Shown: one piece after another, positions 944 to 57,160 of the stretch
Layout: each line of letters opens with the position of its first letter
How positions within the stretch are numbered: position 1 is the first letter of the stretch
Virus record (IMG/VR): IMGVR_UViG_3300020478_000004
Location: 44,526 to 108,525 of that record
Reading direction: 5' to 3' (one strand)
DNA length: 64,000 nt
Origin: a virus
Position numbers and translations under genes: made by a program
The notes under the pieces: model-generated
What the model was told of the DNA's origin: nothing
What the model saw: the letters and a program-made list of their open reading frames with translations, nothing else
Databases searched by the model: none

Positions 944-3900
944 ATGGCTAATTTAGTATCACCAGGCGTACAGGTTCAAGTTATAGACGAAAGTTTCTAT
1001 ACACCAGCTGAACCGGGTACAGTACCTATGTTATTCTTTGTATCCGCACAAGATAAGAAAAACGGTGCAGGAACAGGAACAGCTACAGGTACAACTAAAA
1101 AACAAGCAGGAACACCATTCTTGCTAACATCACAAAGAGAATTAACAGAAACGTTTGGAGATCCAACGTTTTATACAGACACTAATAACAATCCAATCAA
1201 TGGAAGTGAGCTTAACGAATACGGTTTACAAGCGGCTTATTCTTACTTAGGTGTAAGCAATAGAGCATTTGTAACAAGAGCAGATATTAATACATCTGAA
1301 CTAATTGCTTCAGCAACAGAGCCTGCGGCAAATCCAGCAGATGGCACACATTGGTTTGATACAAAAAATACATTATGGGGCATTTTTGAGTGGAATTCAA
1401 ATGCGGCGACTGTTACTGGTGGACAGACGTTTACTAATAAAATTCCAACTGTAATTACAGATAGTACAAAAGTAACAGGTGGAGTACCTAAGACATCCGT
1501 TGGCGCTGTAGGTGACTATGCCGTTGTTGCTACTACTACACTAAACAAAGTATATTACAAAAATTCAGCAGGAACATGGGTACAAGTTGGTTCAGCAGAT
1601 TGGATTAAAGCTAATGCAACAGTAATTGGAACAGAAAGTAATCCAACTATTACTAACGCGGCTAGTATGAGCGTTAATGGTACAGTAGTTACATCAGGTG
1701 GAACAGCTTTAGCAGATGTAGTAATTGCACTTAACGCCGCAGGTATTGCCGGTGTAACTTCAGAAGTTGTTGATGGTAAATTTGAAATTTACTCAACAGG
1801 CGTTGATGTTGTATTAGCAACTAACAGTTCAACATTACTTGCAGAAATTGGTTTAACAGCGGCAACACATAAAGCGCCAGCGTTACAAATTTCAGCACAT
1901 ACTGATGTACCAACATTTAAATCTACTGATACAGCACCAAGACCAACAGGGTCGGTTTGGATTAAAACTACACAACCTAACTTAGGTGCTCGCTTTAGAG
2001 TTAAAAAGTTTAATGGAACTACAAATCTTTGGGAAGATGTTGTAGCACCAATGTACACAGATGGACACACGGCATTGTTTAATTTAGATAAAGCAGGCGG
2101 TGGTGTAAATCTTGCAGTTGGTACTTTATACGTTAATTATAATAACGCTGAAGAATCATCAACTGTAGCAGATTTTAAAATTCACAGACGTACTAATACT
2201 GGAAACACAAGTATTAAGAGTTCAATAATTGCGGCACAGCTTACAGCAAACACTTATGCATTTAATATTCAAGAGTCAATTGTTGGTCAAGCGGCTCTTA
2301 GTGCAGACAAAACAGTTAGTGTAACTACAACAGCGGCATCAAGCGATGCTGATGTTATTGCAGGCGCAATTAACGCCGCAGGGTTTACTAACGTTGTTGC
2401 TTCAGTAGACGCTTCAAACAGAATCGTTATTGAACACAATGATGGTGGTGAGTTCCGTATTAAAGATACAGGTGGCGTACTTAACTTGGCAGGATTTAGT
2501 GCTTTTGTAAATGCTAACTCCGGTACACCTAATTTATATACAGCACCAACAGGTGACACAACACACGACTTTGTTGCAAGTAACTGGCAAGTATTAACAT
2601 ATACTGCTTCAGCTACGGCTCCAACTGCTTTAACAACAGATGGTAGACTATGGTATAGTTCAATTGTTGATGAAGTTGATATTATGATACACAATGGTAC
2701 TACTTGGGTAGGATATTTAGATTCAACTAGTCCGTATTTTGCGGCGGCTGATTCAGATAAAACTGACCCAGCTGGACCAATTGTTTCAGCAACAGAGCCA
2801 ACTTTGCAATCAGATGGAACTGCACTTAAAAACGGTGACATTTGGATTTCAACAGCTGATACTGAAAACTATCCAAAAATTTACAAATACAATGGCACAA
2901 CTCTAAAATTTGTACTTGTTGATAACAGCGACCAAACAACTGAAGATGGAGTTGTTTTTGCAGATGCACGTTATAATACAGCAGGTGCAAATTCAGATAA
3001 AGCAGGAACTATTGCTTCATTACTAGTAAGCAACTTTGTTGATATTGATGCTCCAGATCCAGCACTTTATCCAAAAGGAATGTTACTTTACAATCTACGT
3101 AGAAGCGGATTTAATGTTAAGAAATTTGTTCGTAATCACGTAAACACAGCAACAGATAACATTCGATTTGGCGACGAGTCGCAATCAGGTTACTATGCAC
3201 ACCGTTGGGTTACTGAATCAGCTAACCAAACAAACGGTGCAGGTAGCTTTGGACGTAAAGCACAACGCAAAGTTATTGTTCAGGCATTACAAGCTCTAGT
3301 AAATAGTAATCAAAAAATTAGAGATGATGAATCAAGAATCTTTAATTTAATGGCTTGTCCTGGTTATCCAGAACTAATTGGTGAAATGGTTACATTAAAC
3401 ACTGATAGAGGTTTAAGTGCATTTATTATTGGTGACAGTCCATTTAGACTAACACCAGATGCAACTACACTTAATAACTGGGGTAAGAATACTGCTTTAG
3501 CAGTTGAAGATAACGACGATGGACTTGTTACAAGTGACGAATACTTAGGTGTGTTTTATCCAAGTTTATTCACAAGTGATAACGCAGGTAACAATGTAGT
3601 TGTTCCAGCAAGTCACGGTATACTTAGAACATTTGCATTGAGTGATCAAGTTTCGTTTCCATGGTTTGCACCAGCAGGTACAAGACGTGGTGGTATTACA
3701 AACGCTACAGCGGCAGGTTACATTGACAGCGAAGGCGAATTTGTAAGTACTGCACTTAACGAAGGTCAACGTGATACATTATACAGCAATAACGTAAATC
3801 CAATTACGTTCTTAACAGGCGCAGGCCTTTTAAACTTTGGTCAAAAAACAAGAGCCAAAAATGCTTCAGCGTTAGATAGAATTAACGTAGCACGTTTGGT

Positions 3901-43663: not shown

Positions 43664-43936
43664 ATGCCGAGAGAACTCTTAAATACTAAAAACCACAAAA
43701 CACCAACACATACCATCTCCAATACACAATATCAAGACGTAGAATTAGTCAAACTTATGACTGAAGCATTAACGAATAAGAACAAGTATACTGTTCGTGT
43801 AGAAGGTTGGAATATAGAGTACAAACGGCATTGGACCTCTAGCATTAACAGTATCACTAATTGGGACAATTTAAACTTTAATTACAACCAAAAAGCTGAT
43901 ACATTTGTCTTTCAACATAGGAGCAACGGACAATGA
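43664..43936 (+). CDS. Asn-rich 90-aa ORF (candidate leader peptide or partner subunit)
   Basis: 13 Asn in 90 aa, 6 of them in NSITNWDNLNFNYN; ATGA overlap with the next gene. Confidence 0.6.
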   Translation: MPRELLNTKNHKTPTHTISNTQYQDVELVKLMTEALTNKNKYTVRVEGWNIEYKRHWTSSINSITNWDNLNFNYNQKADTFVFQHRSNGQ

Positions 43937-44847
43937 CCCAACTAATTAACCCACAAGCCTTTACCGAAACTGTCGGCCGTTTACGGTCGTTTTTTTTGGA
44001 CAAGGGATTTTACGAAGTACACACTCAAAACAGATTAAGCATACTAGCCGCTTGTGAAGACCCGTTTAACGTAGCAACATACAATTACGCAGACCAAGTA
44101 TGGCCTTTACCCCAAACAGGCCAGATGTGGCTTGAACACGAATTATTAAGTAGCCCCTCTTCGAAGGGGTTTTTTTGTGTCTCCACATCCTATAGGCAGG
44201 AACCAAATGCAATACCAGGAAGACATGATATCATCTTTCCAATGTTTGAATTTGAGATGCCTGGTGATATAGATGACCTTAAGAAGATGGAGTATGAATT
44301 ATGTGAACACTTGGGCTTTAAAAAGCCTACTGAAAAAACTTATGCTGAATGGCAAAAGCATTACGGTCATGCTGAAGACTATGAAATGACTGCGGAAGAA
44401 GAAACCAAGATGCACCAAGAGTTTGGTACAACCATGATAACAGACTTTCCTGAAATGACATCACCTTTTTGGAACATGAGTAGAAATGATGATGGCAAAA
44501 CTGCAAAGAAGATAGATGTTATACTAGGTGGTATGGAAACAATAGGAAGTGCGGAACGTTCATGCGATGTAGAAATGATGCGTGATACATTCCATAGCAT
44601 TACAGACGGAGAGTACAGTAAGCTACTTTATAAACTGTTCAGTCAGGAACGTGTTGAAGCAGAGCTAGAAAAGTTTCTAGAGTTTGACTTCTTTCCGAGA
44701 GTTGGTGGCGGAATAGGATTAACTCGTTTGTTAAGAGCAGTTGAAGATTATAAAAGTAAAAAAGTAAAAACTGATGATGACCGTGAAATTTTATATAATA
44801 AACGCCGAGAGATGAATAGGCAAAGCGTACACGGAATACTTCAATAA
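43933..44847 (+). CDS. Class IIb (Asn/Asp) aminoacyl-tRNA synthetase paralog, catalytic domain only
   Basis: Motif 1 RSFFLDKGFYEVHT at residue ~18, motif 2 SYRQE...RH..FPMFEFE, ETIGSAER, motif 3 GGGIGLTRL; no N-terminal OB anticodon-binding domain. Confidence 0.9.
   Translation: MTQLINPQAFTETVGRLRSFFLDKGFYEVHTQNRLSILAACEDPFNVATYNYADQVWPLPQTGQMWLEHELLSSPSSKGFFCVSTSYRQEPNAIPGRHDIIFPMFEFEMPGDIDDLKKMEYELCEHLGFKKPTEKTYAEWQKHYGHAEDYEMTAEEETKMHQEFGTTMITDFPEMTSPFWNMSRNDDGKTAKKIDVILGGMETIGSAERSCDVEMMRDTFHSITDGEYSKLLYKLFSQERVEAELEKFLEFDFFPRVGGGIGLTRLLRAVEDYKSKKVKTDDDREILYNKRREMNRQSVHGILQ
43974..43997 (+). terminator. Intragenic terminator-like hairpin 1
   Basis: CGGCCG-TTTA-CGGTCG followed by T8. Confidence 0.5.
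44152..44176 (+). terminator. Intragenic terminator-like hairpin 2
   Basis: AGCCCCT-CTTCGA-AGGGGTT followed by T run (7 T in total). Confidence 0.55.
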
Positions 44848-44853
44848 GGCTTT

Positions 44854-44940
44854 TCCGGGGTGGTGGAAACGGTAGACACGATAGCCTGTTTAGCTATTGC
44901 TTGGGAGAGCGTGAAGGTTCGAATCCTTCCCCCGGAGCCA
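44854..44940 (+). tRNA. tRNA-Asn(GUU) with long variable arm (type II body), encoded CCA
   Basis: Acceptor TCCGGGG/CCCCGGA, G73, CCA; D arm GTG-GAAACGGTAGA-CAC; anticodon stem ATAGC/GCTAT with loop CT-GTT-TA; V arm GCTT-GGGA-GAGC; T arm GAAGG-TTCGAAT-CCTTC. Confidence 0.92.
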
Positions 44941-56906: not shown

Positions 56907-57160
56907 CTGTATACCCTCTCGTCTAATTATATATACAGTATAGTCTCAAAGGGCTACAATGTCAACCTTTTTTTGGTCCTGTAACCCTTTGAATTGCTTG
57001 GGCTATTAAGTGGCTATTAGAATAATCACTATGATCACAGCCGCGATCACGCCGATCTTGCCTAATTTTGAGCCCCAGATATTGCTTATGAAGTCCATAA
57101 GTCCTCCTCTATTATGTATATATTAGCATCTAATTTGGGTGGTGTCAATGGTGGATCCGC

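Follow-up and report, generated by a model that had tools for sequence, protein, structure and literature searches.

A phage tRNA that joins a leucine-type class II body to an asparagine identity set is encoded beside an AsnRS-type catalytic core

The 64,000-nucleotide (nt) stretch analyzed here, positions 44,526 to 108,525 of the IMG/VR virus record IMGVR_UViG_3300020478_000004 and in the following called the window, encodes a single tRNA with the anticodon GTT. It is also the sole ARAGORN call across the whole 108.5-kb virus record. The tRNA gene starts 6 nt past the stop codon of an open reading frame (ORF) for a 304-amino-acid (aa) protein that resembles the catalytic domain of asparaginyl-tRNA synthetase (AsnRS). 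The phage is marine and is represented by an IMG/VR fragment with an estimated completeness of 31%; PA5oct-like jumbo phages have a helicase with 55% identity to its own. Table 1 compiles the features of the locus.

Table 1. Features of the enzyme–tRNA locus, with positions counted from the first letter of the window
Feature	Positions	Strand	Basis or remark
ORF of 90 aa, overlapping the enzyme start (ATGA)	43664–43936	+	probably outside the conserved module
Standalone AsnRS-type class IIb catalytic core, 304 aa, without anticodon-binding domain	43933–44847	+	Pfam, AlphaFold, VIA, family profile
Class II tRNA, GUU anticodon, CCA encoded, 87 nt	44854–44940	+	ARAGORN, Rfam, covariance model R1, cloverleaf covariation
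Acceptor stem, 5' strand UCCGGGG, pairing with CCCCGGA at 44930–44936	44854–44860	+	7/7 pairs
D arm, 3-bp stem, tRNA-Leu-like GGUAGAC loop	44863–44879	+	compensatory changes at G10-C26, U11-A25 and G12-C24 (alignment columns)
Anticodon arm, stem AUAGC (44881–44885)/GCUAU (44893–44897), loop 44886–44892	44881–44897	+	direct reading; 5/5 stem pairs covary
Variable arm, 15 nt, short flavor, 4-bp stem 44899–44902/44907–44910, GGGA loop	44898–44912	+	alignment A1 pairs 46-82, 47-81 and 48-80 covary
T arm, canonical UUCGAAU loop	44913–44929	+	100% paired; T loop invariant apart from position 59
Discriminator G73 (44937) and encoded CCA (44938–44940)	44937–44940	+	G73 in 48/48

Results

Our analyses showed that the 87-nt element is a real, structured and conserved tRNA. 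It matched the Rfam tRNA model with 51.4 bits (E 1.3e-9; gathering score 29) and R1, a covariance model built for its family, with 88.6 bits. In a cloverleaf alignment of 48 distinct homologues, 97.6% of the cells were paired and 19 of 29 pairs carried a compensatory change; none of 500 shuffles matched this pairing, and no slid register came near it either. ARAGORN miscalls or overlooks family members with a very long variable arm.

The initial annotation, which spanned the anticodon and variable arms (44881–44912), had pointed out an unusual uridine at position 37. The loop letters, read directly, are C32, U33, G34, U35, U36, U37 and A38, with the anticodon at 44888–44890 and U37 at 44891. 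U37 is real: it is shared with the Prochlorococcus phages P-SSM2 and P-SSM7 and hence is not a sequencing error. N6-threonylcarbamoyladenosine (t6A37) cannot form here, as had been stated, and likewise the Leu/Ser (class II) type of the body with its long variable arm and the presence of G73 were confirmed.

In its make-up the tRNA is chimeric, with a Leu-type class II body that carries the complete bacterial Asn identity set of GUU, G73 and U1-A72. Like the canonical bacterial tRNA-Asn(GUU), it has the GUU anticodon, G73, U1-A72 (44854/44936) and the UCC...GGAGCCA acceptor end; C2-G71 is present too. In contrast, its variable arm has 15 nt and its D stem 3 bp, compared with 4–5 nt and 4 bp in tRNA-Asn, and U37 (U, A or C in the family) takes the place of A37 in the U36-A37-A38 context of the t6A site. 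Previous work showed that bacterial Asn identity consists of the anticodon and G73 and can be transplanted into another tRNA body, that GatCAB recognizes U1-A72 as its determinant when it amidates Asp-tRNA(Asn), that the antideterminant G73 works against LeuRS and TyrRS and the antideterminant C2-G71 against SerRS, and that t6A37 guards yeast tRNA-Asn from AspRS (PMC9976931). These rules were worked out in E. coli, yeast and a few further model systems, and marine hosts may differ. From the combination of GUU, G73, U1-A72 and C2-G71 it follows that charging with Ser or Leu would be unlikely, and that Asn, attached directly or via Asp, is to be expected.

The 304-aa ORF matched one Pfam family, PF00152 (tRNA-synt_2, class II D/K/N; 6.3e-18, residues 13–271), and no other; the Pfam scan gave no match to PF03590 (AsnA). 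The protein falls in a PHROG of unknown function. It begins at the catalytic domain: residues 1–275 of its AlphaFold model, built on 40 homologues with a predicted local distance difference test score (pLDDT) of 92.7, align to AsnRS residues 230–531, and the N-terminal OB-fold is missing. Class II motif 2 and motif 3 residues are conserved. The conserved QTGQMWLE aligns with the AsnRS motif QSSQLYLE (Q..LE signature), where AspRS has Q..KQ.

Judged by sequence and by the predicted structure, the enzyme appears nearest to true AsnRS catalytic domains. With VIA these gave Z 27.3–28.2 at a root-mean-square deviation (rmsd) of 2.0–2.3 over about 250 residues, the top match being human AsnRS (8H53; Z 28.2, rmsd 2.2 over 251 residues), and the family profile matched them in the PDB with E 4.7e-16. 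Archaeal-type AspRS followed (Z 26.8; profile E 3.4e-11), then GenX (Z 24.5; about 1e-4) and archaeal AsnA (Z 23.2–23.8; 5.7e-5 for 1NNH). Foldseek returned the same AsnRS top matches for the model. The score against TIGR00457 (asnS) was 31.3 bits at a cut-off of 342.6, and the enzyme likewise stayed far from the aspS NCBIfam cut-off. Archaeal asparagine synthetase A (3P8T, 3REU, 1NNH) and EpmA/GenX (3A5Y) also consist of the catalytic core only (about 280–330 aa), have no anticodon-binding domain and match the fold with Z 23–24.5. Unlike them, the window enzyme is closer to true AsnRS (Z 27–28; profile E 4.7e-16 versus 5.7e-5 and 1e-4), and neither of them is known to be linked to a dedicated tRNA gene.

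Residues 272–304 of the enzyme (44746–44847) form a basic C-terminal tail that is predicted to be helical with low confidence; most relatives have 273–291 aa and no such tail. Within the first 250 coding nt of the enzyme are two plus-strand hairpins with T runs that resemble terminators (43974–43989 and 44152–44171), and the region holds four such sites where shuffles gave 1.6 as expectation. We considered the 90-aa upstream ORF as a split anticodon-binding domain and rejected this, as it matched no significant Pfam or PHROG family and, of all loci, tblastn detected it in just three (L008, L009 and L060).

A scan of IMG/VR yielded 592 confirmed relatives of the enzyme gene; the counts given here were taken from the 80 loci with the best scores in each scan. 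In 78 of these 80, a class II GUU tRNA lay just downstream of the enzyme gene. With P-SSM2 added, the tRNA follows the enzyme gene in 79 of 81 loci outside the window, and P-SSM7 has it too. Enzyme genes without the class II tRNA were seen in L024, L025 and L052. The Prochlorococcus phages P-SSM2, P-SSM5 and P-SSM7 carry the enzyme gene under the annotation 'tRNA ligase', T4-GC194; directly downstream, P-SSM2 and P-SSM7 encode the same tRNA with the loop CUGUUUA and with different but compensating stems. The pairing of the class II tRNA with the enzyme gene is hence near-obligate, and the two genes probably are co-transcribed as a cassette. T4-GC194 'tRNA ligase' is merely listed for P-SSM2 and P-SSM7 in an earlier publication (PMC3037559). 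Our literature search found no functional study, and no paper on the class II nature of the tRNA, its loop or the gene–tRNA pairing.

In the P-SSM2 record (L001, AY939844.2), the tRNA-Asn feature PSSM2_199 is placed at 164094–164179, within a coding sequence. The tRNA really lies at about 162083–162171, directly after PSSM2_198, and the GenBank coordinates seemingly stem from another record version.

All 48 distinct relatives have G34-U35-U36, G73 and U1-A72 together with the usual tertiary nucleotides. Around the invariant U1-A72, the acceptor pairs 2-71, 3-70 and 4-69 covary, with C2-G71 found in 42 of the 48 sequences. CCA is encoded throughout the alignment except in P-SSM2, and it is also missing from P-SSM7. 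Outside the anticodon the loop varies: CUGUUUA occurs in 22 distinct sequences, CUGUUAA, the exact canonical tRNA-Asn loop, in 12, UUGUUUC in seven, CUGUUCA in four, CCGUUUA in two and CGGUUUA in one. We counted substitutions as parsimony changes on the 70-tip tree of the enzyme protein. Position 37 changed about 14 times, positions 32 and 38 nine times each and position 33 three times, with no change at positions 34–36, 1, 72 and 73; gene–tRNA recombination might inflate these counts, which leaves the overall picture unaffected.

Of the 70 lineages, 51 have U37, 15 A37 and four C37; G37 does not occur. U37 occurs in the most divergent lineages (P-SSM2, P-SSM7, L145 and L103) and A37 in the closest relatives of the window (94% protein identity). 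The conservation of U37, proposed earlier as a check, thus holds only in part: it is the majority state and probably the ancestral one of the family, but A37 and C37 arise repeatedly. Position 37 behaves as unconstrained, and U37 itself is no functional signature. As the position switches between U, A and C and is never G, neither t6A37 nor a purine is required. A role in frameshifting, which had also been raised, found no support.

Variable arms of 11 to 39 nt occur across the family, which argues that arm length is not being read. Many relatives (L002, L011, L054, L061 and others; alignment A1 columns 46–82) have an arm of about 28 nt with a 10-bp stem. Long arms carry a conserved GCAA-containing loop (CUGCAA, UCGCAAA, CGGCAAA) and short arms end in GNRA tetraloops; the two forms switched repeatedly on the enzyme tree.

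For the origin of the body, we scanned IMG/VR with a pattern confined to the D arm and T loop, which returned 80 loci with two kinds of tRNA. Fifty-five tRNAs were phage tRNA-Leu(UAA), mostly with the loop CUUAAAA; all of them have A73, and none has the enzyme gene upstream. Eighteen were GUU-type tRNAs with U1-A72, G73 and CCA, and the enzyme gene lies directly upstream of every one. Phage tRNA-Leu(UAA) shares with the window tRNA the class II type, the 3-bp D stem, a common D arm (TGGTGRAANNGGTARACAYG) and the T loop. It differs in the anticodon (UAA instead of GUU), in the discriminator (A73 instead of G73), in G1-C72 or G1-U72 at the place of U1-A72, and in lacking the adjacent enzyme gene. 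Ordinary tRNA-Leu genes of huge phages reach 64.5 bits with the family covariance model, and the best-matching tRNA-Leu(UAA) is 76% identical to the window tRNA along its whole length. One contig of 335 kb encodes both a class II GUU tRNA and a tRNA-Leu(UAA); 18 of 19 aligned D-arm bases agree between the two, and the acceptor end of the GUU tRNA is like that of canonical tRNA-Asn. A tRNA-Leu(UAA) gene that was re-identified as Asn would be the simplest reading of these similarities.

The initial annotation had suggested that, owing to its body, such a tRNA may receive Ser or Leu and insert these residues at Asn codons. The class II body with its long variable arm would fit, and G73 is also the discriminator of tRNA-Ser. 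However, G73, the LeuRS antideterminant, is invariant in a family whose tRNA-Leu siblings all have A73, most members show the SerRS antideterminant C2-G71, and the length of the variable arm is unconstrained. Anticodon and partner enzyme both indicate Asn, and the invariant GUU, G73 and U1-A72 constitute the bacterial Asn set. We consider Ser or Leu mistranslation highly improbable and, on these comparative grounds, reject it.

Several further RNA calls were made near cassettes of other phages. Calls resembling transfer-messenger RNA (ARAGORN; tag ANANRAPEMALAA or ANNNYAPEMALAA) lie just upstream of the enzyme gene in L061, L062, L070, L072 and L075 (about 980–1395, minus strand). Nearby tRNA arrays contain 94-nt 'tRNA-Ile(TAT)' calls (L011:1319–1412, L055:2864–2957, L416:1664–1757), and a 'tRNA-Ser(ACT)' call of about 90 nt is found at G098:100706–100796. 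Such array tRNAs, long or with odd anticodons, may be further atypical tRNAs.

Discussion

We favor, with moderate confidence, the reading that the class II tRNA accepts asparagine and works with the adjacent AsnRS-like enzyme. A tRNA-Leu(UAA)-type body would have been given the complete bacterial Asn identity set, i.e., G34-U35-U36, G73 and U1-A72. Two ways of charging can be envisaged. First, the adjacent enzyme might attach Asn directly; as it has no anticodon-binding domain, it must then read the acceptor end with G73 and U1-A72. Alternatively, a non-discriminating AspRS and GatCAB of the host might charge the tRNA, and the known determinants for this route are exactly the invariant positions. 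In either case, Asn-tRNA could then be supplied for AAY codons without need for t6A37 and independently of the host tRNA-Asn.

The second route is of interest with regard to picocyanobacteria. In 81 genomes of the marine Synechococcus/Prochlorococcus family (G006–G086), no protein exceeded the AsnRS family cut-off; only AspRS and LysRS matched weakly. Asn-tRNA in these cells must hence come via AspRS and GatCAB, a route that the invariant positions of the class II tRNA satisfy. An AsnB-type synthetase was found in 11 of 25 sampled picocyanobacterial genomes.

Systems in which the body and the anticodon of a tRNA stem from different families are known. ProRSx-tRNAProX of Streptomyces pairs a dedicated synthetase paralogue with an anomalous tRNA, and nematode nev-tRNAs and Candida tRNA-Ser(CAG) are chimeric class II tRNAs. 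The window cassette resembles these in its mixed tRNA and, in one case, in the adjoining special synthetase paralogue. There, however, codons are reassigned or mistranslated, whereas in the cassette the anticodon, the acceptor identity and the enzyme type all point to Asn, and hence no recoding is predicted.

A number of observations weigh against joint action of tRNA and enzyme in asparagine charging, and most of them concern the distribution of the enzyme. The enzyme family is large, with 686 clusters at 50% identity and more than 8000 at 90% identity. Orthologues with 49–61% identity occur in metagenome-assembled genomes of Bacteroidota, Alphaproteobacteria, Myxococcota, Chlamydiota, Dependentiae, CPR and DPANN, and they share nearly all conserved motifs with the phage enzymes, the motif 2 loop included. 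Yet the class II tRNA is absent beside all cellular orthologues; its presence is confined to marine contigs with 63% identity or more. In the huge phages LR756501 and LR756508 the enzyme gene is present and the class II tRNA is found nowhere. Moreover, pyrD lies within 3 kb of the cellular orthologue in at least 13 of 76 loci, several of which have a fused pyrE-pyrF in the same operon, and two fusion proteins (P0125, P0135) join the enzyme core to PyrD or PyrF, in the arrangements PyrD+core and core+PyrF. Shared motifs, orthologues without the tRNA and operons with pyrD and pyrE-pyrF together suggest that the enzyme may be a metabolic ligase and not a synthetase. They suggest a hitherto unrecognized role in, or feeding, late pyrimidine synthesis.

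Following this line, the enzyme would act off tRNA, similar to an asparagine synthetase or as a ligase of the late pyrimidine pathway, and the tRNA would be a supplementary tRNA-Asn charged by the host, held together with the enzyme gene in nothing but a co-transcribed cassette. The standalone class IIb cores with non-tRNA functions, archaeal AsnA and GenX, show that the fold would allow this. We regard it as possible, if rather doubtful. The class II GUU tRNA in the D-arm/T-loop scan never occurred without the gene, starting about 6–20 nt past its stop codon, and a Leu body would be superfluous in a tRNA-Asn that served only as a supplement. In addition, the Pfam scan of the enzyme gave no AsnA match, true AsnRS scores about 4 Z units over archaeal AsnA, and free Asn would be no help to translation in hosts without AsnRS.

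The pyrD and pyrE-pyrF neighborhoods comprise L247:1725–3834, L248:2875–6003, L226, L245, L218, L257, L223, L224 and L237. A missing dihydroorotase in the genomes with pyrD-linked orthologues was considered and dismissed, since PyrC-like matches of 186–221 bits were present in three of five genomes and no clear absence was seen. A replacement of GatCAB by the enzyme family was likewise discarded, because gatB is found in five of five orthologue genomes (broken by stop codons in G004). The bacterial orthologue at L284 has a tRNA-Asn nearby, which is a canonical 73-nt tRNA past a terminator-like hairpin and was taken as coincidence. An atlas search with the enzyme returned only its own viral clusters, and viral scans with the distant relatives P0205 and P0151 found nothing.

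Further points against asparagine charging in the service of translation come from the tRNA itself. In about 80% of lineages position 37 is a pyrimidine (U or C), and a few members have C33 or G33; neither would be expected of a tRNA that reads the weak AAY codons efficiently. The 133-kb contig G098 (L062) encodes a canonical 76-nt tRNA-Asn with the loop CUGUUAA (A37) inside a tRNA array (101262–101337) and, 44 kb away, the class II GUU tRNA with the loop CUGUUUA (U37) beside the enzyme gene (56953–57052). The class II tRNA therefore does not simply fill in for a missing decoder. Asn makes up 5.9% of the phage codons, behind nine other amino acids; codon demand thus gives no special reason for the class II tRNA, and codon compensation, which we considered, does not account for the sole tRNA in 108 kb.

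One may speculate that the class II tRNA is a carrier and not a decoder and that the enzyme reads the acceptor end only, which would make it either a minimal 'operational code' synthetase or part of a non-ribosomal use of Asp or Asn. We hold this for doubtful. In its more specific form, the non-discriminating AspRS of the host would load Asp onto a dedicated Asn carrier tRNA, GatCAB would amidate it, and the enzyme would take the residue or reverse the reaction in a non-ribosomal pathway. In agreement with this, the invariant positions are exactly the AspRS and GatCAB determinants and positions with chiefly ribosomal roles (37, the 32/38 pair, even 33) are free, while loss of t6A37 lifts a known block to aspartylation. 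Hosts without AsnRS and with patchy AsnB, a separate canonical tRNA-Asn kept in G098 and the tie of cellular orthologues to pyrimidine genes would fit as well. Nevertheless, such a pathway is inference only, and we know of none of this kind. Cellular orthologues need no dedicated tRNA, codon reading explains the invariance of GUU equally well, and in the 335-kb contig the class II form is the only tRNA with an Asn anticodon among 10 tRNAs, as expected for a decoder. Hence we consider the dedicated carrier unlikely.

Nucleases of the colicin E5 type cut the Tyr/His/Asn/Asp group of tRNAs. The cassette might therefore supply a replacement tRNA-Asn, nuclease-resistant or modification-independent, whose foreign body and drifting loop evade anticodon nucleases of the host that are directed at tRNA-Asn. 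Repeated changes at positions 32, 33, 37 and 38 in an otherwise frozen unpaired core would agree with this, as would G098, where a canonical tRNA-Asn coexists with the class II form. Substitutions in the anticodon loop that are predicted to let phage tRNAs escape host tRNases have been described (PMC10264068). Like such tRNAs, the window tRNA is phage-encoded, and its loop deviates from the host consensus at positions other than the anticodon; here, in contrast, the whole body is swapped and a synthetase-like gene is linked. The anticodon, site of E5-type cleavage, is unchanged, and the obligate AsnRS-like partner would be left unexplained. Furthermore, we know of no nuclease directed at tRNA-Asn in the hosts concerned. 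Nuclease evasion thus seems distinctly improbable as the main function, although it is compatible with asparagine charging as an add-on.

To our knowledge, natural tRNAs whose body and identity stem from different families are rare. If asparagine charging holds, the cassette would be a natural case of Leu to Asn identity transplantation, with a tRNA for ANN codons that dispenses with a purine at position 37 and with t6A. The enzyme would be a candidate synthetase without anticodon-binding domain that needs to recognize its tRNA by the acceptor end only. The cassette is abundant in the ocean, as seen from the 592 confirmed IMG/VR stretches, and can be tested at the bench with the cultured Prochlorococcus phages P-SSM2, P-SSM5 and P-SSM7, which would link it to hosts entirely without AsnRS. 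Should the enzyme instead be metabolic, one would need a new explanation for its strict coupling to the tRNA gene. Alternatively, if the tRNA is a carrier, the orthologues linked to pyrD and pyrE-pyrF may point to an unrecognized Asn- or Asp-dependent step that feeds pyrimidine synthesis.

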